Source: Amphiscolops sp. MND2022 | Lineage: Eukaryota | Direction: 5' to 3' | Length of the DNA stretch: 64,000 nt | NCBI GenBank assembly: GCA_964187785.1 | Contig: OZ076409.1 | Location: 67,024,001 to 67,088,000, forward strand | Shown here: positions 34,401 to 58,680 of the stretch, in pieces | How the letters are laid out: every line of letters starts with the position of its first letter | How positions within the stretch are numbered: the stretch's first letter is position 1 | Notes under the pieces: model-generated | What the model saw: only the letters and a program-made list of their open reading frames with translations | What the model was told of the DNA's origin: nothing | The model's database searches: none | Position numbers and translations under genes: made by a program

Positions 34401-37016
34401 TGCGCCGACTAAAAAACCTGCCCCTGCAATATTCGCGCTCATTTTCTTAGAATTCGCCGACCAAAAACTGACATATTCCGACTTAAAATGTTTACCAAAA
34501 AAATACGAAAACTTTCACACTACAATAGTTATTGCCGATCTAAAAACTAGTTCGTGCACTTACTCAGTTCACGGTAATTTGAAAAACTTCTTCGCTGTTT
34601 TCAACTTCGCAAGATCCAGTGTAATTCGGATTTAGGCCACTTTTTTGTTTATGATATAACAAACAAGACGGGAACGTCTAAAGTCAGCGCTATATCTAAG
34701 GCTCAAAAAGCGGAAAGTTTTTAAAATTGTAAAAGGGGGACCTTTACGACTTTTGGAAAATCCTGTTTATTGCAATTTTTTTAAAAAAAAATGAAGGGGG
34801 ACCTTTTGGCGACAAAAAAAATCAAAAAAAGTCGCACATTGCCGAAAAAAACAAAGGGAGGACCCTGTAGTCCCGTCCGGTTTTGTATCTTACGTTAAAA
34901 AGTGAGTACACGAAAGGGGGGAGCCTTTGCACTAACTTAGATGCGTTTCCGCTTGTCGGTCCAGTAGTTCAGTAGTTCTGTTAAAAAAGTGTCCACTACG
35001 CATACATTCTTTAGTCTGACGAAAAAAAAACTTGCAACTGTAATATTCGGGCTCATTTTGTTAAAATGCGCCGACTAAAAAAGGTAACATAAATGATCAA
35101 CTGAAAACATTACGAGAATTCTACTCTGATTATCGTCAAACTTGCCTCATTTCCTTCTTTCCTATCAAAGTGATCTACAATCTTCATTTACCATTTGAAA
35201 GCTGAATCAAAGCTTTTTCAAACCCAAAGACCGCATAGTGACAAAAGCTGTGCAACAAGAATTCAGGATTTCGAATGATCAAGAATTTTTCAATGAATGC
35301 AAACCTAGACTAGGTCAAACGGTTTTTCCTTTGGGTTTTGTTTGGCATTCTGAGGAGAATTTTTGGATGTTTTCAGCATGAATAACTCCTTTGCGAACCC
35401 AAACGGTGTTGCTTTTTGGTAGGGAATGATATTTCGAGCCCCAACGTTCCATCTTTGAATTTTTCGAATGGTGCTACCATTGACAAAAATTTCGCGTTTT
35501 TGAAAAAAATGCGGTTATATGATCTTTATTCGGACAAAGCATTTTTTAGTCGGCGGCACCGTGAACATTTCTCCGAAAAGTTTTTTGATCCCGTGGAAAT
35601 GATGAGTTTTCTCAATGATTGTGGAAAAAACCTACTGTTTTTTTCGACACTGTGTGATTTTTTCCATACAATTTTAATTTGGTTAAAGGGTACCAAAGCG
35701 TTTGGGGAGCTTAAAGATTCTTTTTCGGTACTATTAGACTTTTGCCCGAAAAAAATTTTCTCGAACAAAATATATGTGAAATAAATTCGGTTTTTTGATG
35801 TTTCAAGTTTGTGAATGTCAATTTTTTGTGAAAGTCAGTCTTATGCGTATCCCTTCAGGTTTTTTCGGCACAGTAAATTTGATAAATTCTCTTTGATAAA
35901 ATTGATAAAATTTGATAAAATTTGTCGCTCTTTATTAAAAAACTTTGTTTCTTTAACCTTGAGTAGTGCGCCAATTTTGACACGAAGTGGTATTCTTACT
36001 GTTAATTTAAAACAACTTGAGAACGACCCAAGTTGGTCCACCGCTTTTAGCTTCAACCAGCAAACTTCAAATGGCTCAAGAACAAGCATTGAGAAAACTT
36101 TTATCTAAAGCGCATAATCTGATTTTTTTTCCAAAACGTTATGACCAGTTTTTATAAATACATATTCGTTATATCCAGAAGAGTAAATTCAAATTGGTAT
36201 AATAGCAAATTTTAGATTCGAAACTGCAATTCGTGCCTGGTAACACTCAAATAAAAGGAGAAAAGGCTGTTTTTGAAGTTATATTCAGATTTTATCACTA
36301 TATGAGTTATACTATTAATCGCTATTTCTATAGTTCAATTTGAAAACGAAAATTTCGGTGCCCCGCTTAAGGGTCAAAAAGTGCAAAAGTACTTCAATGC
36401 GTCAGAGATTCTGTTTTTGAAATATTCTGTCAGTCCCGAAAAACCCAAAAGGTAAACCATATGACTTGAAAGGTTTTTTCTTCTCACAAGGAGCAACGAA
36501 AACCAAGAGCCGAAATCTTTTGTTCTAACAAAACTTGTTACAAAAACTTGCACAGGGACAAAAAGCCATGGGCCCTAAAATTTCTAAAAAATAAAATGAT
36601 CATCAACACGCTCGCTTATCAACGGGATATTTTCCGTCACAAACTGTTCTGCAACATCATGATTTTGAGGCTCAAAAGCAAAAAAATGCACTATGAAAAT
36701 GCATAAACGTTCGGAGTATTGAAAATTTCTACACATTTGGTTCATGTTATCCATAAAAAAACTAAATTGGGAATACTCTAAGTACCGAATTCTTTTTTGT
36801 TCTTGAAGTGAAAACCAGAAGGTAACCTATCAAACTTTTCTATGTTAATATACACAATAAGTCACTAAAAAGTTCACAAACTGGACAAACTTGACTTTTT
36901 GACACTTTTGAGACATTTTGACGCGCTTTCCAAACAGAAGAAACTGAACATATCTTTTTCAAAAGGCTTACTGAATACCGGATTGAGTCGATATTGATTA
37001 TCTAAAAAACTGTAAC

Positions 37017-37375
37017 TAAAAGAAATAACATTCGGCAGTTATCTCGTCTCTTCTATTTGAAAAATAGGAAAAAGGCAACACTCTATTTCTCAATGTATTA
37101 TCGGCCCACAATGACGAAACAGTTAATCTGTACAAAATGACAAAACTGATAAATGAGCATACAGTTGTTGACAAATATTAATAAACATAACTTCGAGATA
37201 GCAAATGAGTAATGAATAGAAAAACATATTTTTTCTATTTTTGTAAGTACAAAAGATTTTCAGTTACCGGGATTCGAACCCGCGATCTACGGCTTTAGAA
37301 TATGCGCACTAACCTATTTCGCCATAGCGTCTTGTTATTGGTCAGTTCAATTTTAATCTTATTGTGAACGCAACA
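37017..37375 (-). repeat. 3' LTR of the BEL element (359 bp)
   Basis: Direct repeat of 45784-46126; on the minus strand begins TGTTGCG and ends TTCTTTTA; preceded by PPT-like GGGCCCGGAGGA (37376-37387). Confidence 0.95.
37261..37331 (-). promoter_or_regulatory. tRNA-like Pol III A/B-box module inside the BEL LTR
   Basis: GACGCTA-TGGCGAAATAGG-TTAGTGCGC...GCG-GGTTCGAATCC-CGG: A-box-like motif, consensus B box and a T-arm stem CGGG/CCCG at tRNA-like spacing. Confidence 0.65.
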
Positions 37376-37539
37376 TCCTCCGGGCCCGAGAAGATGAGAT
37401 TTTTTTTAAAACAAAAATAACTTTTTTTTGCACAAAAAGGTTTACTTACGTGGATGTTCAGATTACATGTTAAATGTTATTCGTTTCAGTGATATATGTT
37501 AAATAAATACAATCAAATTTTCGGGATCGAATAATGATA

Positions 37540-39020
37540 CTAATAGGATTCGGAATCGGGAACTGGTAGGACGGGGCATAACTTCGCAACGGGACGAACA
37601 AGACAACCGGTACTGGTCTTTACTTCAACAGAACGCGCAACGGCATCGCTGCCGAAATTCAATTTAACAACTCGACCTAGTGGATAATGTCCTCTTGGAC
37701 TCGTGGACTTTGTTCAACAAGGCAAAACGTGGTTATCAAGATCTCATCAGTTAAGCGTCTGTTCCCGAGAATTGCGTAGAAAAAGTGCTTAAAACTTCTA
37801 ACCACTCGTTCCCAGATGCCTCCATGGTGAGGGGCACTAGGTGGGTTGAACTTCCAGAGTATACGTTTCTTGACAAGTTTTTCAGATAAGACTTGTTGGT
37901 TCTACCTGGAAATGTTCTGTAGGAGTTCTTTTTCACTGGCTATAAAGTTGGTTCCGTTGTCCGACCATAAAACTGATGGGGTACCCCGGCGGGCTGTAAA
38001 CCTTTCGATTCCCATTATGCAGCTGCTAGTGTCCATGGAAGGCACAACTTCGAAGTGTACAGCTCGTGTAGTCAAACAAGTAAATGGGAATCCCCATCTT
38101 TTTTCAGTCGATCTTCTCACGGCAACGTAGAAAGGACCAAAGTAATCTACGCCAGTGTTGGTAAATGGAGGTTCTTTGAATGCAAGTCTTTCTCGTGGAA
38201 GGTCGGCCATCATCGGACTGATAGTCTCAGCTCGACGTTTGCGACAAGTTACACATCTTTGAACTATTGATCTCAAGGCGGTTCTAAGCTTGACGATGGC
38301 AAACTGTTGCTGCACCAACCCTCTCAGGTAGTCCACGCCTTGGTGACAATGAGCTCGGTGTAATTGTTCGAGGAATAAACGTGTAACTGGATGGCGACTG
38401 TCCAGTAAGACGGGATGCTTTGCGTCAAAACTAGATACATCAAGTTGTTTTGTTCTACCAGTTGCTCGAAGTAAACCGTTGGGTCCAACAAAGGGGGAGA
38501 ACTGTAAAAGTTTAGAGGATCTGCTGAGCGGGAAGTTCTTCAGCAGTAGCTTCTTTTCTATAGGGAAAAATTCCAATTGAGCCAGGTAGAAAAGCTTCAT
38601 TTGTGCGGTCTCAAGTTCACTTGGGTCTGTAATGGTACCCGTTTCGGAGCGGTAGGCCTCATTTTTTGGAATGAGACGCATCAGGTAGGCAACAACACGC
38701 AAAAGTTTCTCGAAAGAGCTATACTTATGCCACTCGAAAGTTGATGTGTTGACGTCCACATTGGAACTGAGAACAATCTCATTTTTGGGGGAAGGCTTTT
38801 CTGTACTTTGGTCGTTAAGGTCAGGTTTCAGTTTAAATTTTACCGGTTCCGATGGTTTGAACGGCCACTCGGACGTTTTCAGAAACTCCGGTCCATTTAA
38901 CCAACTGCTGCTCACTAATGATTTCGCTGACAGGCCTCGCGTGCCTGCATCTGCAGGGTTTTCGCTAGATTTTACGTAGTTCCACTCGTCGGTCGTTGTA
39001 AGGTCCAAAATCTCCGCCAC
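37540..39020 (-). pseudogene. BEL pol: end of RNase H region and integrase, frameshifted and internally deleted
   Basis: WNYVKSSENPADAGTRG; zinc-binding H..HQG..CVTC; GVDYFGP; TRAVHFE; SDNGTNF; after a frameshift HHGGIWER; jump from CLVEQ to SPRGHYPLGRV near 37710; TAG at 37540. Confidence 0.93.
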
Positions 39021-39045
39021 GCGGTTCGCAACGATGACTGGCTGC

Positions 39046-40257
39046 TTATCCAGAGTGTATCCACTGCAGAACAGTTGTGCTGTCGGACCACATGAAAGTC
39101 TTACTTATCTCCAGTGACAGGGCTTTCTCAATTTCTTTTCTAAGCCTTGCTGCTAGTAACGAAGCCTGTAGTTCAAGTTTTGGAATTGTCAAGGCTTTCA
39201 TGGGTGCGACTCTGGCCTTTCCGAATACAAAGGCGAGTTGTGTTTGTTCTTGGTTTTCATTCTTGACAACCTTGGCACGTAGGAACGCGACAGCGCTGAA
39301 CACGTTTCGGGAACTATCACCAAACAGGTGAAGTTCCAATGTTTCGACTTTTCCCTGGAAATAAGCTCGTGGAATGACAATGTCGCTTAAGCCTGGTAGT
39401 TCTTCACTCCTTTCAAGGAATTTGGTTACAACTTCAGGTGGTAAGTCGTCATCCCATTGTTGTCCGCTTAGCCTCCAGATGTCCTTTAGCAGTAGTCGTG
39501 CTTTGACGGTATACGGTGCGACAAGTCCAATCGGGTCGTACACTGAAGAGACTAAACTCAGAACGATCCTTTGAGTTACTTTTCGCTTGACTTCAGGGTT
39601 CGTACTGTGGTTCCACTTTAGTCCCAACACATGTGACGAGTTTTCGGTGCTCGGGATTTCTTTACCTTCGGTTGGTGATGTGGGGTCAGCTTCCAGCTGT
39701 GGCGGAATGGTAGACACGTTTGAGACGAACTTAAAGCCACCTAATGAAAGCAAATTCACTAGATCCTTAGCTTTCCGGGTAGCTTCTTCTGCGGTTGGGC
39801 TGGATTCCAAGTAGTCATCCATGTAGAAGTTGTTGATGACGCTTTGGGCGGCTTCGGGAAACTGTGATGCATTGTCGGTTGCTGTTCGTCTCAGGGCATA
39901 GTTCGCACATGTGGGGGAGCCCTTGGATCCGAAGATGTGACGAACATATTGGAATACAGCAACTTCGGATGCTGGATCTTCGCGCCACAGAAAACGAAGT
40001 GAAGGCCTATCGTCTGGAATGACACCGACTTGTAAAAACATTCCTTCAATGTCAGCCGATACAGCGTGTGGATGTTGGCGGAATCGAATCAAAATGTGGA
40101 TCAGATTCTGTAATAAGTCTGGTCCGGTTAAGAGCAAATTGTTTAAGGACTGCCCTTGAAACCTGGCGGCGCCGTTCAACACTCGTCGAACTTTGCCTGG
40201 TTTGTGGGGATGAACTACAGGGTGGTGCGGAAGGTACCACTCGCGGACTTCTTTCAC
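39046..40257 (-). pseudogene. BEL pol: reverse transcriptase and RNase H (Peptidase_A17-type) segment
   Basis: WYLPHHPV, GPDLLQNL, ADIEGMFLQV, YMDD, YDPIG, LHLFGDSS, KARVAPMK, TIPKLELQA, WSDSTTVLQWI. Confidence 0.95.
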
Positions 40258-40263
40258 TTTGAA

Positions 40264-41892
40264 TCAATCGCCTTTGTCGACGTTCACAATGTACCCCTTT
40301 GAAAAGTCGTCCTGAATCGTTTTGGAGTATCGCTCTTTCAAATCTGCGTCTTTCGCGAGATGGCGTTCTAGCGACTTGAGCTGGACGAGTGCCGAAAAGT
40401 AGTTGTTCGGTAAACTACTATCGTCCTCAGCCCAAAGCATACCAACCTGGTATCGGGACCCGTCGTGGTATGTCTTGTCGTCAAGTATCTTCTCCGCTCT
40501 CGCATCGGCAGCGGAGCGGGAGTCTACCTGTTTGAATGCTCCGTATGATTCCATATCATACCAGCTACGGAGTTGGTCAGCTAATTCTGAATCAACGTCT
40601 TTTTTAGTAGAAACAGCCTTGAAACATGTCGAATGAAATCCAGAAGTCGATGGAAGAGGTCCACTCAATACCCAGCCCAACGGTATACGGACGGCAACTG
40701 GGGTATTCTTACGGTCGGAATCGAAATACTCCAGCGGGCGGATAAAGTGAAACACGTCCTGACCTAGGATCATGTCGACGTCGGCATAGCTGTACTTCTG
40801 CAAAAATATTGGTTCCAAGTGTGGGTACTTAGTTTTCAGGTAGTTCACGTTGATCGTGTCGGTTCCCACGTTCAGATTTTCTGGGACGTATGGTTTGATG
40901 TTGAAAGGGGAGCAAGAGCCACCCGAATGAACCGGTGTCAACTTGAGCTCCACCATCTCCGTACTTATGACTTGATGGGAGTTAATCCCATGTACAGTAA
41001 GTTTCGTCGGTACGCCTTGAACTTTCAATCTATTTGCCAATCTCGCAGAAATCCATGAATGGCTACAGGCTGAATCGCACAGCGCTAAAACCTTTTCAGA
41101 GGCGGCTGTAGAATGCAATTCGGCTTCCGTTATCTGCAGAAGACCCTTAACGTCCGTGACGGAAGGTAGGCCTGAGCTTGTTTCTAACTGCTCGCTTATC
41201 TTTGTTGCTCCGACACAGGTAGAAGATTCAGGATTTCGTGGTTTCGTTACTTGGTTCTTATTCGGAAAGATCCGGTCGGCCCCATGTAAAAACGTGTTGT
41301 GAGTGCTTTCACAGCTCTCTTTAGTACATTTGCGGGGTTGCGGGCATTGTCGGAAGGAATGATTGGCATTGAAACAAGAGAAGCAAAGCTTGTTGTCGGC
41401 ACCTAACTTTGCTCTCTCTGTGGGAGTTTTCTTACGGAACACCGGACATCTCCACAGAGGATGTTTCTCTTTACACGCCACACAATTTGGCAGTCTGTCG
41501 GACTTTGGTTTTAATGTGTTGTTTTGTTGGTTGTTTGATGTCGTTGCCGCGAACACTTTCGAAGTTGTCTTGGTTCTATTGACACTTGGTTGGGGATTTT
41601 TGTCCGACTTTGGTTTGCCCGATGCAGTCTTCATTCGTTCATGAGCTTCAGCTTTATCTTTCAACCACTCATTGAAGTCAATTAGTTCAATTAGTGTTGG
41701 TCGATCTAAACTACGCTTAACGATGTGCATCGACCAAGCCTCCTTCATGTTTGGTGGGAGCTTTTGCACTGCTTGACCGAGTAGTGATGCACTTGACAGG
41801 TCTTGGTTGTAGTTGAGCGATCGAAATACGCCAACTAACGAACTGACAGTTGCATAGTAGCTTATGATACTCTCGCTGTTGTGCATTTTCAC
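40264..41892 (-). pseudogene. BEL gag C-terminus (three Cys/His knuckles) and aspartic protease segment
   Basis: CVACKEKHPLWRC, CFSCFNANHSFRQC, CTKESCESTHNTFLH; protease ALCDSACSHSWI ... DMILGQD ... LGWVLSGP. Confidence 0.93.
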
Positions 41893-43712
41893 CGGGGTAC
41901 ATTTGCAAGTTTATCCAAGTATGCAGTCACTACTGCTTGAGGTTGTCCACATTTGCGCTCAAGTGTCTTGAGGGCATCTTTGTACATGGCCCCACAGTAG
42001 GCGAATTCGGCAATTGCGACCTTAGCTTTCCCAGTCACCAATGTTTTCAGATATGTCAGCTTGACATCATCTGTCAGAGGGGCAGAGTCAATGGCGCTCT
42101 TAAACTGTCCATACCGTTCATGCCATTGAATAGGGTCGCCGCTATATTGAGACAGTTTCCACTCTGGTAGGTGGTCTTTCTTCGTTGAAGCCAGTATTTG
42201 TGCAACGTCTTGGATTGTAAAGCTCGGTACACTGGTTTGGGTCACGGAAGTTGTTGAAGATGGCACAAATGGTGTTGCATTCGCACTGGGGAACAGTGAT
42301 GACGGCTGAGTTGATGTACTAGCAACAGCTGGAGTAGCTACAACTGGTGGCGGTAAGTAATAAACAGTTCCTCCACACGTGACCGGCAAGATAGGTACTG
42401 TTGTCGGTAGAGGTGTACTACCCAAAGAGGCGGTTGTTGCTGCGATTGGGGTCGGTTGACTTTGCGGTAGTTGCCTACTTGCTTGTACAGAGGGAATAAC
42501 AGGTACGTGCGGAAACGTCCCTGCGGTCAGATTCGGAATTACATGACTCACTGGCACATTGACAATTGGGTTGAAAGGTGCAGGAATCGTTGGTGGAACG
42601 GCTGGACTGGTTGTGATTGTTGCCGTTGTTGTTATCATCGGGTTCAATGTTGGTACGGGAGGTTGAACAGTCATTGGTACGGAAGGTATAACATTCATGG
42701 GGTTCCTTTGAAGTGAAACAGAAGCAGCCGGTTGCTGAACAAGTGTAATATTCGGAAGTGGTGGTGGAAGACTAGTAACTGGGACGTAAACAGCTGCAGG
42801 ATCTTGACTTGCTATGCCTACCTGACAAGCAGTTCCGTTCTCAACGAATTGCAGTGATGCTGTGCTAATAACAGCATTGTTTGAAGCTGATGTCGTAGTA
42901 GTGGTGACTGGAGGTGGAGCGTTAGCTTCAGTAACACTGGGCGAATTGTTGATCCAATCGCTTATTCGCTCTGTTTTCTTTCCTCTGCTAGAAGCGCTCA
43001 AGCGCGACAGAGTTTCGTGAAAGTCTGTGTTTGAATCGGAGAAATCGTCTCGAAGTGCCATTTCTGTCAAAGTTGCTTCTGCTAGTTTTCGACGGTTTTC
43101 TTCTTCCAATTCCTCAACTCTCGAAGCTTGTTCCTTTCGGAGTTTTACCAGTTCCAGTTCTTGTTGCTCAAGTTCGAGTTGTTGTTTTTGCTTTGCCAGA
43201 CGTAGTGCGGCTTCGTTCTGCTTTCCAATCTCCGCACGTCTTTGCTGAGCAATAACGAAATCTCGTTGCCGTTGACTCGATGTTTTGGACATTTTAGAAC
43301 TTGAGACTTTGCTAGATTTAGTTTTGACAGTAGCTGCCTTCCGTGAAGTTTGGGAGGACTTTTCGGATTGCGGACATTGATCGATGTACTCCCTTGCTTT
43401 CTGCAGTATTCTGTCATTTTCCACGGTGACATCATCTAACCACTTCTCTAGGTCGTCAGTTATAGTTACTGGGTCGTTTGACTTCTTTGCGAGCTCTAAC
43501 AGCTGCTCGTTCTTCGCAAAGGCTTTAGTCATTGTTTCGTTGCAATAAGTCACTAATCTTTCAACGCGAACGCGTCGTTCAGAATTGTTCACGGCATCGA
43601 TGATATCTTTCTGGAACTTTTTCAACTCTGTTTCGATCTTTAAACGGCTTTCGTGGAGCTTCTGAACCTTCTCTAACATGGGGTCGGTCATCGTTAATCG
43701 GAAATTGGTCAA
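41889..43712 (-). pseudogene. BEL gag N-terminus: coiled coil, Pro/Thr-rich linker and DUF1759-like capsid region
   Basis: HLPEWKLSQYSGDPIQW...FKSAID...KLTYLKTLVTGKAK; frameshift near 41890 into the next segment. Confidence 0.9.
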
Positions 43713-44176
43713 ACAACTTCAATCAAAATTGGAACGGAATCTTTTTGAGCGTCAACCAAACAGTTAAGTCTGGACACAGTCCAAAAAGATCAGTATCCGA
43801 AAAATGGGGCTTTTGTTACCAGTAATGTAACGGTTGACAGTAGTGCTTTTGCACGAAGCGTGGAAGATTTTTTGTTTGGGTTAAAAGTAGTCTGGGACTA
43901 CGAGGACGAAGACAAAGAACTTCAAGGTGCGCAGAAGGCGCTAACTCAGTGAGAAAGGTGAGAGGGGAACGGTACTGCCAGGATTTCAACTGGTCAATTA
44001 AGTCCGGACACTATTCTGACAGTCGAGGAAGGCGAAGACTGAGTTTTCAAGGTATCAACCAGTCAATGAAGTCTGGACACAACCCTGAAGACGAAGGATT
44101 GCGAGTAGAGATTTCAACCAAACAATTAAGTTTGGACACTGTCTCTACAACGGTTAACAAGGTATGGGGGCGGTGT

Positions 44177-44782
44177 TCACTGAGAAGTGTTCGGGGAAGC
44201 CCTTTTTGCAGCGTTGCGGGCACGCTTGCTAGGCCTCTTTGGACGGCTTTTGTCGGTGATGGCGGATAGTTGATTTTCTTTCCGTAGAATGAAGTCAAGA
44301 CTTTTCAGTTCAAGTTCAGGACTCTGGTGTAAAGCCTTATATTTTTTCAAAAGTTCCGGATTCTTTTGTTTTTTCGACGAAATGAAATCCTCCACGATGC
44401 TGAATACTTCAATGTTATGATCGGTTTTCAAAACATTCAAAAATGTTCGGCGTGCGATGTCGTTTGCAATCAACCCGAGCACTGAGCTTGTTCTGAAGGC
44501 CCTTCAACTCATCAATCAATTGTGACACAGTTAGTGTTGAAAATTCTTGCTTTCATGTCGAGAAATGCTGTTATTTAAAACATCATGCCATATAACAATA
44601 TTGTTTTTCTCTTTCAGATCTTTGGAAAACAAATTCTGAACAATTTTTCTCGGATTTTTGGTGTTTTTGTTCAGACTCAGGCCCGGGATTGAAAAAATTT
44701 TGTCGTCATATCGAGTTTTTTCTTCGGTGCTTAATGTTTCCAAAGCATGATTTAAAGAACTAGCTGCTAATATGAAAACCAT
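44177..44782 (-). pseudogene. Extra ORF of about 200 aa upstream of gag, two frameshifts, SGNH/GDSL-like motif order
   Basis: ORFs 44782-44531 and 44482-44177 are bridged by a third-frame stretch LTVSQLIDELKGLQNKLSARVDCKRHRTPNIF; motifs VFILAASS, IPGLSL, IVIWHDVLNNS, ALHQS. Confidence 0.6.
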
Positions 44783-45765
44783 GTGTTTTTTCCTTATCGA
44801 TTGCTTTCGCTTATAGGAAAAATGCGCAGCCTTAGAAAATTGACAAAATGTTTTCCTTTCTAAAAACTTTTATTTTTGAAAACTTGTTTTTTCGAAAACT
44901 TTTTCGAAAAACTGGTTTACTCTGGTGCGCTATTCAGACAATAGAACAGTTTATCTATAACAACTGTTTGGACAGATTGAGTACCTGTACCTAGAAATTC
45001 ATTCTGAAAGTTTTTCTATCTCGAAACTGAACTTTAAAATATTATAAGGGCTAAGTTTTTCAAATTTTCTCAGTTACTCACGACCGGGGGCTTCTAGGGT
45101 ACTTTCGGAGGGGGTTCCGAGGGCACCGTCAGGGTTCGGGGGCACCTTCGAGCCTTCGAGGGTTACCGTCGGGCTTCGGTGGTCACTGGCTAAAAGGATC
45201 CAGATTTGATTGAAGATCACTTTGATTGAAGAGGCCTTGGAAAAATACCACTGGATCCAGTGCTGCTGTGGCTTCTTCGTTTGGCGTCGACGCCAGGGAA
45301 CGATCCCGGGACATCTGGTTCGCAGGCAGCGGCTGCGACGGTTGGGAATCTCTCAATTGTCCAGGATTTGGGGCAACGCCAAAGATAACGCTTTTCTCTA
45401 ATAGTCAAAATATAGGGAACACCGATTGAAATTCAAGTGAAAGCTGAAGGATTTGTTTCGTGTTGATCCAATGATAAGACACCTTGCATGGCGTGAAAAC
45501 AGATCCGCTTCGTCATTCTCAGTAAGTAAAGTAGAAATAATTTGGGTCACTTGAGGGATTATTCAACTGGAGGGAACAGAACAGGTACACATTTCAAGTG
45601 AAATAAAGTAAAGTCCTTCTGCAATGTCGACTAGATGCAAACTTATAATTTCTTAATTATTATTCACTGAAAGTTATATCACAGGTTGAGGAATCATTGA
45701 ACCAGGTTTCACGCAAATTAGAAACAAGAACAAGAATTTTTGAACATAAATGGGTTTTTGATAAT

Positions 45766-45783
45766 GCCTCTCTATGGCCACCA
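45766..45783 (-). promoter_or_regulatory. Primer-binding site of the BEL element (TGGTGGCCATAGAGAGGC)
   Basis: TGG-initiated sequence directly abutting the inner end of the 5' LTR. The first 8 nt fit tRNA-Ile-type 3' ends; the cognate tRNA is unverified. Confidence 0.75.
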
Positions 45784-46126
45784 TAAAAGAAATAACATTC
45801 GGCAGTTATCTCGTCTCTTCTATTTGAAAAATAGGAAAAAGGCAACACTCTATTTCTCAATGTATTATCGGCCCACAATGACGAAACAGTTAATCTGTAC
45901 AAAATGACAAAACTGATAAATGAGCATACAGTTGTTGACAAATATTAATAAACATAACTTCGAGATAGCAAATGAGTAATGAATAGAAAAACATATTTTT
46001 TCTATTTTTGTAAGTACTAAAGATTTTCAGTTACCTTATTATTTTCAGAATAAAGCGCACTAACCTATTTCGCCAGAGCGCCTTGTTATTGGTCAGTTCA
46101 ATTTTAATCTTATTGTGAACGCAACA
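45784..46126 (-). repeat. 5' LTR of the BEL element (343 bp)
   Basis: Same as the 3' LTR apart from a few substitutions and a net 16-bp loss that removes the B box. Confidence 0.95.
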
Positions 46127-47578
46127 GTAACCCACGAAATAGTTCGAAAACTTTACAAACATTTCATGGAAACGTCGAACACTTTTGAATTTTCACGGTA
46201 TTTCTGCGTTTTTTTTCTAATTGCAATTTTTTAAAAAGCGTACTGAATAGGTAAATATTTCGTTTGGAACCTATGAATAATAAATAATCAACAGAAGAGA
46301 AATGTTCCTAGAAAACATTGAATTTTGCAGTGATGCGATTTTATTCTGATCCCGTACTGCTAGCTACATGTTTCAACGAAAAATCTTTTCCAAAATGTAC
46401 TGCTTAGTTCTTTCGCCCTTGAATGTTCTGAACCCTATGATCCATGAAAGCATGGGAAATTGTACAAAAATTGTATGAAAAACAAAAAAAAAGACTATAA
46501 TTCTTGAATTAATCGTTAATTTGGGTCATTTTGAGGCAGTTTCTATCAAACAAATGCATTTATCTCTTCACAAATATCTACTGGACAGCGAATTTCTTTT
46601 GTTGAACGTTTTCACTTTTTATTCTACGAAATCGATTGAGAACTGGACAGAAATTGCACAAAAGCGTGAAAAATCTGCTTTAAAAGTTTTCCACTTTGAA
46701 ACATTTTCCATTGAAAAACTGCATTCATTTCTTCGTAGAAGCCCTCTGGATTATATCATTTTTCTAAGCCACGAAATTTTTCGGATAAGTGATGACAAAA
46801 GATGTTAAGAAGTGTATAATATCTAAATATTTTGAATTTTTGTCAATTTCATTCAGAATCTGAGGCATTTTGCCAATGAAAACCTGCATTTATTTCCTTA
46901 ACAAAATCTCGTGAACAACGAACTCTTTCTTTTTTGAACGTTCTAGCTTTTTAAACCACTAAATCAATCAAAAATTAGACAAAAGTTGCAAAGAAAATTT
47001 TTCATTCGGAAAGTTTTCCATTTTTGCAACTTTTGGGTCGTTCTTGGCTATTTGGTGTCAACTAAAAAATTTAAAAATCTCCCCAACCACGAATAACATT
47101 GAACTAAACTTACGTTAGTTGAATTCTTTGGGTGCAACTCTTTAACTTTGATATAAATTTGAACATAACAAATTTTCGGCTGATATAAATATTTTCTTCT
47201 TTCACGAAAAAATGGGGGGAATTGAAAATCAAAGGGGATCAAACATGAAATAGAGGACCCATTGAATGAGTTTGGCATTCGGCTCTATTTTCAGCTTTCG
47301 GCGGGCTCTGGTCACTTTGACAGTATTGAAAAGGAACATTAGAAATTCCCACTTTACCAGCGATCCAAAAAATGCTTGCTTTAAGCACAAAAGTAAGAGA
47401 CAGATTGGAGGAAAGGCTTGTCTTAGAGTTTTTTGCCGAGAACCAGATTCAATAAAGTGGCATAACGCAAGTGGACCCTCAAGTGGAAAAACGCAAAAAA
47501 ATTCCACATCGTTGAAATTACTCAAACGGAGGATCCTTCAATCTCTAAAAACGTTTTTTCTTGAAACTAGAATCATTT

Positions 47579-57052: not shown

Positions 57053-57219
57053 AACTAATCCCATTTTTTGTTCAAACCACGACAGTTTTTGAAGAATAGA
57101 ACTTCCAATGACCTGAGAGTTGAAACTATAGGGTAGTACCCTATAGTTTCAACTCTCAGGTCATTGGAAGTTCTATTCTTCAAAAACTGTCGTGGTTTGA
57201 ACAAAAAATGGGATTAGTT
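57053..57219. repeat. Perfect 167-bp palindrome (83-bp arms, 1-nt spacer at 57136)
   Basis: Arms checked base by base with no mismatch; centre tatagggta-g-taccctata. Confidence 0.97.
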
Positions 57220-57279: not shown

Positions 57280-58680
57280 ATCGTTCCTTGGTGACCCTTT
57301 TCAACGTTCCAATCCAAAAAATTTGTCAAATATTGAGAACAAAATGCATAAAATCTTAGGAAATTGGAAAGTTTTGTGAGTTTTGTCTTTTTCGGTGTCA
57401 ATTTGAGACATTTCCACAGAGAAAACTGCAATAAACTCTCCGGAAGAGTCTACTGGACAAAACATTCCTTTTATGTGACCATTTTCAATGTTCCAAACCA
57501 CAAAGTTTGTCAAAAATTTTTAAAAAAGATCCATAGCATCATTGAAAAATTTGAAAATTCTGGGAATATTGGTATTTTCGGAGTCAATTTGAGACATTTT
57601 CATTCAAAACTTTGCCATTATCTCGTCATAAAAGATTACTGGACAATCAATCCCTTTTTCTTGTTGACCCTTTAAAACATTCCAACCCATGAAGTCTGTC
57701 GAAACTTCAACAAAAAATGCATGGAAACATTGAAAATTGAAAGTTTTAGATTTTTGTCATTTCCGGTTTCAATTTGACATTTTCATTACAAAAACTTCAA
57801 TAAACTCCTCAGAAAAGCCTACTGGACAACACATTCTTTCCTTTTGGGTTACTTTCGACGTTCCAATCAACAAAGACTGTAAAAAAACTGGAAAAAAATG
57901 CATTAAAACTTTGGAAACTGGAAAATTTTGAGATTATTGGTATTTTCGGTGTCAATTTGAGACATTTTCATTCAAAACATTGCAATTATCTCGTCATAAA
58001 AGACTATTGGACAAACAATTGTTTCCTTGTTGACCTTTTTGACGTTTTAAAACATTCCAATCTACAAAATCAGTCCAAAGTTTGACCAAAATTGCATAAA
58101 AACTTTGAAAAATGGAAAAATTTGGATTTTTTGTCATTTTCGGTGTCGATTTCAGATATTTTTCAAATAAAAAAACACCAATTTTCTCTTCACAAAGGAC
58201 TACTGGACAAAGAAGTCTTACCATGATGACCGTTTCCAACATTTGAATCAACGAAGTCTGTCGCAATTTTGACAAAAATTGCATGAAACTTTGAAAGTTG
58301 GAAAATTTTTGGATTTTTTGTCATTTTCGGTGGCAATTTGAGATTATTTTCATTCAGAAAACAGCAACTGTCTCCTCGGAGAAGCCTACTGGACAACGAT
58401 TGAGCGCCATGTTGAGCTTTTTCAGCTTTCTAATCTACGGATTCTATCGAAATAATGACAAAAAATGCATACAAACGTTAAAAATCGGAAACATTTTGGT
58501 TTCTTTGTCTTTTTTGGGTCTTTTTCTTCCGAAAAAAACCGCATTTATATCTTCATAAACAACCGCTGGACAACGTATTTGTGCCCTTTTGAACTTTTTC
58601 AACATTCTAATTTACGACATCTATAGTAAAATTGACAAAAACGTTTTTTTGCAGTTTTTACTCTTTTCGGGGTCATTTTC
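57280..58680. repeat. Diverged satellite-like tandem repeat, monomer about 185 bp, about 7 copies
   Basis: Anchor tactggacaa or a variant at 57451, 57637, 57820, 58005, 58201, 58387, 58564; also recurring ttttcggtgtcaatttgagacatttt. Confidence 0.85.

Follow-up and report, generated by a model that had tools for sequence, protein, structure and literature searches.

A probable SGNH-fold accessory gene upstream of gag in a BEL/Pao retrotransposon family

Published accounts of BEL/Pao elements give them gag and pol and, in some cases, env (PMC8742986 and PMC3118150, in part; papers so marked are cited from the portion of their text that was available). The element analysed here carries an extra open reading frame (ORF) between its primer site and gag, which raises the question whether this frame is a gene of the element family or a passenger of a single copy, and what its product might do.

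The element and its extra ORF

The window, i.e. the whole 64-kb stretch of DNA analysed, contains a complete-looking LTR element of 9.1 kb on the minus strand (46126 to 37017). Its 5' LTR (343 bp, 45784..46126, starting with TG and ending with TA) and 3' LTR (359 bp, 37017..37375) form a direct repeat, and the same five bases, GTAAC on the plus strand, are found outside both LTRs as a target-site duplication (right copy 46127..46131, left copy 37012..37016). The internal features are all on the minus strand. A primer-binding-site-like stretch starting with TGG abuts the LTR (45766..45783), recognised by its sequence and by its position, which is that of Belpaoviridae, where the primer site is complementary to tRNA-Arg or tRNA-Gly (PMC8742986). 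It is followed by a non-coding leader of about 1 kb with seven upstream ATGs (44783..45765), the extra ORF from its ATG at 44782 to its stop at 44177, a 485-nt spacer (43692..44176) in which a 30-nt repeat occurs four times (at 43752, 43986, 44055 and 44114), gag-pol (37579..43691, gag ATG at 43691) and a polypurine-tract-like sequence preceding the 3' LTR (37376..37387).

The gag-pol region, delimited by Pfam and tblastn, comprises gag, protease, RT, RNase H/Pao, integrase and a DUF5641 region. Pfam detects in the internal frames, in this order, DUF1759, DUF1758, RVT_1, Peptidase_A17 (E 8e-41), Integrase_H2C2 and rve, and this Pao domain order identifies the element as BEL/Pao. DUF5641 is present in the sister polyproteins, in which gag-pol is a single frame; the window copy, compared by tblastn to the 2133-aa sister P0477 (93-97% identity), is disrupted near 41895, 40264, 39055 and 37705. 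BEL/Pao elements are metazoan, with LTRs of 0.2-1.2 kb, genomes of 4.2-10 kb and the order PR-RT-RH-IN (PMC8742986). Both LTRs and the total length of the present element lie within these ranges and gag is followed by PR-RT-RH-IN domains, so that LTR size, genome size, domain order and the single gag-pol frame of the sisters are all those of the standard layout.

The two LTRs of the window are nearly identical apart from three single-position differences and one block of about 35 bases (37269-37325 vs 46036-46075). In the 3' LTR this block completes a tRNA-like stretch with what we take to be an A-box and a B-box, the B-box-like part being replaced in the 5' LTR; neither ARAGORN nor Rfam finds a tRNA gene in the LTR, and the fold z-score is -0.4. 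Both LTRs terminate in TA (37017, 45784), the usual LTR end being CA. Elsewhere in the window, a large tandem array at about 14000-36300 consists of near-identical copies, the units measuring about 5 kb and 3.63 kb, and a perfect 83-bp inverted repeat with one base between its arms (57053-57219) adjoins a satellite of about 186 nt (57285-58500), of which related copies are found at 46535-47100.

The first-pass annotation had placed an additional ORF upstream of a BEL/Pao gag and had read it as a protein of about 200 aa broken by two frameshifts. The frame does lie between the 5' LTR and primer site (45784/45783) and the gag ATG. Its first piece (44531..44782, minus strand) comprises residues 1-84 with blocks I-III, including Ser8, Gly34 and the WHDxxNN stretch, and 77 of these 84 residues are identical to those of the intact sister P0005. 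The partly decayed middle piece (44427..44543, minus strand, about residues 81-119) is in another frame and shares 26 of 35 residues with natural intact sisters (44531-44427, about residues 85-119), and the last piece (44177..44449, minus strand, residues 115-204), which carries His155 and the basic tail, returns to the frame of the first and agrees with such sisters at 86 of 90 positions (44449-44180). Together the pieces map onto residues 1-204 of intact sisters, with the changes of frame near 44535 and near 44440 and a copy slightly shorter than its 204-codon sisters; the conserved Tyr105 is lost from the middle piece, and the window copy is therefore decayed. All motifs quoted in the annotation are found in the ORF, and the basic C-terminal tail that it had pointed out consists of the Lys/Arg-rich residues 180-200 (median net charge +25 in 71 sequences).

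Conservation of the extra ORF and its linkage to gag-pol

Intact copies elsewhere had been set beforehand as a test of the annotation, and many were found. With the 83-aa first piece as query, 158 of 193 candidates qualified as relatives at E<=0.001, so the ORF is not a product of chance. Among the matches listed, 89 of 120 relatives are 195-225 aa long, the typical intact protein having about 204 aa, and 72 of these 89 near-full-length relatives keep an RPxRP tail. A family profile built from 30 sisters matched 802 clusters at E<=0.001 and 478 at 1e-10 in a set of 1.84 billion representatives at 50% identity. The best 150 of the 802 matched clusters are all of at most 282 aa; fused or longer forms of 386-2000 aa numbered 0 among 7999 scored candidates, which is weak evidence, and no gag-pol similarity was found in 14 long family members. 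A quickly built tree of 95 rows groups the window-like subfamilies in one branch of 32 rows (support 100) within a much deeper family. Dozens of the sister subfamilies are intact, at 56-90% identity.

Conservativeness on the BLOSUM62 scale was used as a protein-level stand-in for dN/dS. The differences between 29 aligned sisters have a mean score of +0.32, where single-base changes free of selection should give -0.34 to -0.15, and 98 of 194 alignment columns contain only one or two residues. As judged from these protein comparisons, the data demonstrate that the extra ORF is a real, separate gene under long-term constraint. An observation on composition may be added: the family has hardly any methionine after the first residue (0.05% in the 29 close and 0.18% in the 71 diverse sequences; 44177-44779 in the window), against 1.1-1.6% in seven gag-pol proteins of the same lineage.

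No family member was found in the prokaryote genomes searched, nor in viral contigs with three queries; viral matches limited to the tail (L003 and L004) were dropped as low-complexity. Metagenomes yielded two short loci with a family member (L001 and L002). The member in L001 is distant (41% identity), and about 560 nt upstream of the ORF, at 205-235, the contig has CA and then a stretch starting with TGG, which to us looks like an LTR end and primer site; downstream of the ORF it has short repeats and ends before any gag. Such short repeats are found just 3' of the ORF in both loci, as in the spacer of the window.

Linkage to gag was measured by exact equality of contig sizes between ORF proteins and gag-lineage proteins, not read from contig DNA. 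Thirty-six of 185 distinct ORF contig sizes coincide with one of 153 gag contig sizes, where chance would give 8.8 (3.3-18.3, 95% range of the null; P at worst 2e-4), a null calibrated on six accidental coincidences of size within the ORF set itself; of the 36 matches, roughly one in four may be accidental. For contigs below 100 kb, 6 of 37 matched against 0.24 expected. The remaining 149 ORF contigs have no match in this gag sample, which is partial. A first control, in which 0 of 56 contigs with distant ORFs matched gag, was dropped as the main null because 3.6 matches would be expected from the same assembly; these contigs may derive from another one. Of the six best ORF matches four have a gag or gag-pol partner. 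One contig of 8474 bp, whose size leaves room for one element only, carries the ORF (P0004), gag (P0405) and a Pao polyprotein of 1822 aa (P0476), and the N-terminus of its gag is identical to the window gag over 120 aa.

The distances of ORF and gag co-vary in 30 of the 36 pairs, i.e. those with a single ORF protein of at least 110 aa and the gag N-terminus covered (Mantel r 0.415, 0 of 5000 permutations). The rank correlation of identity to the window between ORF and gag was not significant (rho 0.36, p 0.07, 26 pairs). Several pairs are discordant, with near ORFs (distance 0.10) and distant gags (0.36-0.42), and may reflect module exchange between subfamilies or the chance sharing of a large contig. 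The run-on tails of three sisters resemble the spacer of the window (E 1e-13, 3e-7 and 7e-5; 15 extensions examined), so that sister copies too have such sequence behind the ORF; the 5' extensions of sister ORFs gave no match to the window leader.

Capture of a host gene fragment, or an unrelated insertion nested in the window copy only, would agree with the broken state of this copy, with the lack of a gag match for most ORF contigs in the partial sample and with the scant DNA context of distant members. Against it stand the dozens of intact subfamilies, the enrichment on gag contigs, the co-variation with gag, the shared downstream spacer and a search around the window ORF in which no terminal repeats or duplication were found. 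This explanation is already largely refuted for the window lineage, and we consider it highly improbable. Given the linkage, the co-variation and the shared spacer, the ORF belongs to the element family and is not a nested insertion, as the annotation had supposed in connecting it to BEL gag-pol. As far as contig sizes and protein sequences tell, it travels with the gag lineage of the window.

Predicted fold and candidate active site

The natural intact sister P0004 was folded with AlphaFold2. With 71 diverse sequences the model (pLDDT 95.8, pTM 0.88) has five strands alternating with helices, and with 30 close sequences (pLDDT 74) it is of the same structural class. Aligned to 48,161 solved chains by VIA-align, it matched 43 at Z >=8. 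The top match is the acetyl xylan esterase 7ddy (Z 11.6, rmsd 3.7, 159 residues aligned), followed by further acetyl esterases, the OatA catalytic domain and GDSL-like lipases, with residues 1-177 covered. The top rows are entries with GDSL or SGNH in their titles, matched at 10-18% identity, and the untitled rows we take to be SGNH proteins as well. Foldseek gave one match at E<=0.001, the GDSL-like lipase 3p94 (E 2.3e-4, TM 0.52). A BFVD structure search gave none at this threshold, with SGNH-named entries among its top rows, and the ESM Atlas provided a weak lead: in the cluster ranked third, which shares 135 of 256 features, GDSL_2 is annotated on 23% of members.

The SGNH link is visible by predicted structure and is not detected by sequence methods. 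No Lipase_GDSL family of Pfam was matched by the six proteins tested, and none is among the 25 of 54 Pfam families listed for the 71 members; Pfam and NCBIfam searches returned no meaningful family, the weak matches to TPR_ZFYVE26 and KaiA_N being rejected as below the cut-offs, and a PDB sequence search with the deep family profile gave 0 matches. Alignment of the family by hhalign to E. coli TesA with 71 close relatives gave no signal, and neither did two controls, the template profile being too shallow (Neff 1.1) for the comparison to be informative. A 926-bp contig filed under Ruminococcus albus (L009) encodes a product 100% identical to E. coli TesA and is probably a contamination.

Conservation within the family follows the SGNH blocks. 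No residues are better kept than Ser8 (70 of 71 sequences) and His155 (69 of 71), and Gly34 (65), Asn70 (56), Asn71 (64) and Trp65-His66-Asp67 (65-67) accompany them; a proline directly follows His155 in 36. A second alignment of 84 sequences (median identity 35%) gave the same picture, and this conservation holds at about 30-35% identity. In the model Ser8 is placed after strand 1, Gly34 after strand 2, the two asparagines within the helix that comes after strand 3, and His155 before the last long helix, positions which fit the order of blocks I, II, III and V in SGNH proteins (PMC9487903, in part). Block III has an unusual WHD lead-in. Block I reads (G/A)-A-S-S instead of G-D-S-L, with alanine at position 7 in 68 of 71 sequences, and aspartate is absent from the five commonest residues at position 152, three before His155 (71 sequences). 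The family thus lacks the canonical GDS(L) and DxxH motifs of the full triad. The first-pass annotation had seen the Ser, Gly, Asn and His positions and the missing DxxH aspartate, which agrees with the family alignment, but the block I glycine that it also reported as missing is absent only from the window subfamily and is present in 49 of 71 family members.

Could the fold assignment be wrong, and the product be some other flavodoxin-like alpha/beta protein? The lack of sequence-profile support would speak for this, as would the middling Z values, which the tool itself describes as frequent. The model is of high confidence, however, both aligners and both models rank SGNH/GDSL first over residues 1-177, and conserved residues occupy four SGNH block positions, which makes a different fold very unlikely. 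The extra ORF is predicted to encode an SGNH fold, in agreement with the check proposed for it beforehand. The missing GDS(L) and DxxH motifs lower the case for a canonical GDSL lipase and not that for an SGNH fold, since members with a Ser-His dyad exist: the CE2 esterases and SsEst are active SGNH enzymes without the block V acid (PMC9487903, in part). These enzymes place a tryptophan in the block V loop, whereas the corresponding position of the BEL family is variable and mostly basic or small (as far as the same text describes them). Taking gene, linkage and model together, we regard a conserved SGNH-fold gene borne by BEL elements as very probable.

More delicate is whether the protein is an enzyme, a fold in common being no proof of function. 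The OSK domain of Oskar (5a4a) is among the structural matches (Z 8.7, rmsd 4.0, 147 aligned), and Oskar and the insect PAF-AH homologues are named as SGNH proteins whose activity has been lost (PMC3905857, in part). A non-catalytic SGNH derivative of this kind, binding RNA and localising the element transcript, for instance to germ plasm, would be compatible with the absence of both the DxxH and the block I aspartates and with the high net positive charge. OSK ranks only 32nd in VIA-align, below active enzymes, and a dead domain would not need the Ser8 and His155 that nearly all members keep, so we judge this explanation rather improbable. The conservation of these two residues leans toward a retained catalytic site over an Oskar-like dead domain, and we hold it somewhat more likely than not that the putative enzyme is active.

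Proposed role and relatives in other mobile elements

According to the scheme we propose, the product would be a low-turnover Ser-His esterase, encoded by an independent accessory gene some 204 codons long, of which the window contains a decayed copy. Ser8 would be the nucleophile, Gly34 and Asn70/71 would form the oxyanion hole with either asparagine as donor, and His155 would act as base without the DxxH aspartate. Element RNA may be bound by the basic tail and anionic membranes by the charged surface; the RNP or particle would thereby assemble on, or move with, membranes. The analogy is with ZfL2-1, whose esterase hydrolyses pNP-acetate slowly and binds anionic liposomes and whose ORF1p has an arginine-rich motif (PMC3905857, in part). 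The scheme as a whole, SGNH esterase plus membrane and RNA tether, is offered tentatively, at somewhat under even confidence, and the membrane or RNP role taken by itself is a possibility on which we would lean more lightly still.

An SGNH enzyme acting on a host target would account for the same conservation of Ser, Gly, Asn and His. Such an enzyme could deacylate a silencing or defence protein, or a glycan or lipid signal, with the basic tail serving as nuclear localisation signal. Acetyl esterases and O-acetyltransferase domains are the best structural matches, the protein is separate and was never found fused to gag-pol (in the size class and the long members searched above), the discordant ORF/gag pairs may stem from module exchange between gag subfamilies, and deacetylation and depalmitoylation have been named as options (PMC3905857, in part). 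No substrate or partner supports it, however, and the strong positive charge spread over the protein is explained no less well by binding to nucleic acid or membranes, so we hold a host target to be unlikely, if worth keeping in mind.

The esterase and tether scheme also touches on translation. The extra ORF would be translated first from the element RNA, and gag through reinitiation or from a second transcript. The spacer contains no sense-strand ATG in its 485 nt, where 4.2-6.5 would be expected (P about 0.015), and from its sequence it fits reinitiation or a second message for gag. Leaky scanning through the whole ORF was set aside as unsupported, the out-of-frame ATGs in the ORF body not being depleted (8 vs 10). 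A still wider reading would make the family the defining "ORF0" of an old BEL/Pao branch, as yet undescribed and spread over several animal hosts, an active Ser-His lipid esterase giving env-less elements a membrane route in place of the envelope; we see this as an improbable extension.

Among the SGNH esterases acquired by retroelements, the present family would be one more, very divergent case, kept under selection across many subfamilies next to a complete gag, and would show that the esterase is not just a substitute for gag. The protein is small, has one domain and offers clear candidates for catalytic residues, which makes the lipid and membrane hypothesis easy to test. The layout extra ORF, gag, pol is missing from the ICTV Belpaoviridae profile, and it raises the question how gag is translated behind an ORF of 600 nt. 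We found no description of an SGNH gene in BEL/Pao, nor of one placed upstream of gag, while SGNH ORFs in other retroelements are already known. The literature searched for SGNH, GDSL or esterase in BEL/Pao or Belpaoviridae, or for an extra ORF upstream of gag, contained no report (PMC7599744 and PMC2774666 included, in part); most subscription journals and Repbase Reports lay outside it, and an earlier annotation is possible.

SGNH ORFs are reported from CR1, L2, RTEX and Penelope elements (PMC3905857, in part) and from a fish Helitron (PMC4021074); no retroelement esterase structure was among the VIA-align and Foldseek matches listed. Like the ORF1 esterases of ZfL2-1 and of CR1, L2, RTEX and Penelope, as far as that text describes them, the BEL family has an SGNH domain 5' of the replication genes, an arginine-rich peptide and a proposed role at membranes or in the RNP. 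Those elements are non-LTR, and their esterase ORF replaces gag and its domain follows a coiled coil, whereas the BEL ORF accompanies a full gag, lacks a coiled coil, begins at strand 1 of the fold and carries its basic peptide at the C-terminus. The Ngaro-like tyrosine-recombinase retrotransposons of amphibians (bioRxiv 10.1101/2021.08.05.455354, in part) likewise have an SGNH ORF as an extra ORF of putative function in a gag-bearing retroelement; they belong to a different order of elements, and their SGNH ORF comes after the recombinase.

A close parallel by description is Vesta, an LTR element of bdelloid rotifers whose GDSL ORF3 supplements gag and pol, in a source that also names Juno, TelKA and Mag (PMC5408684, in part). 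Vesta ORF3 has the canonical invariant residues and was found by HHpred (same source), whereas the BEL ORF comes first, upstream of gag, lacks the DxxH aspartate and is invisible to Pfam, the two being compared by description only. Within the available account of Vesta, both are stand-alone SGNH/GDSL accessory ORFs without coiled-coil or transmembrane part, each with a function that is so far putative.
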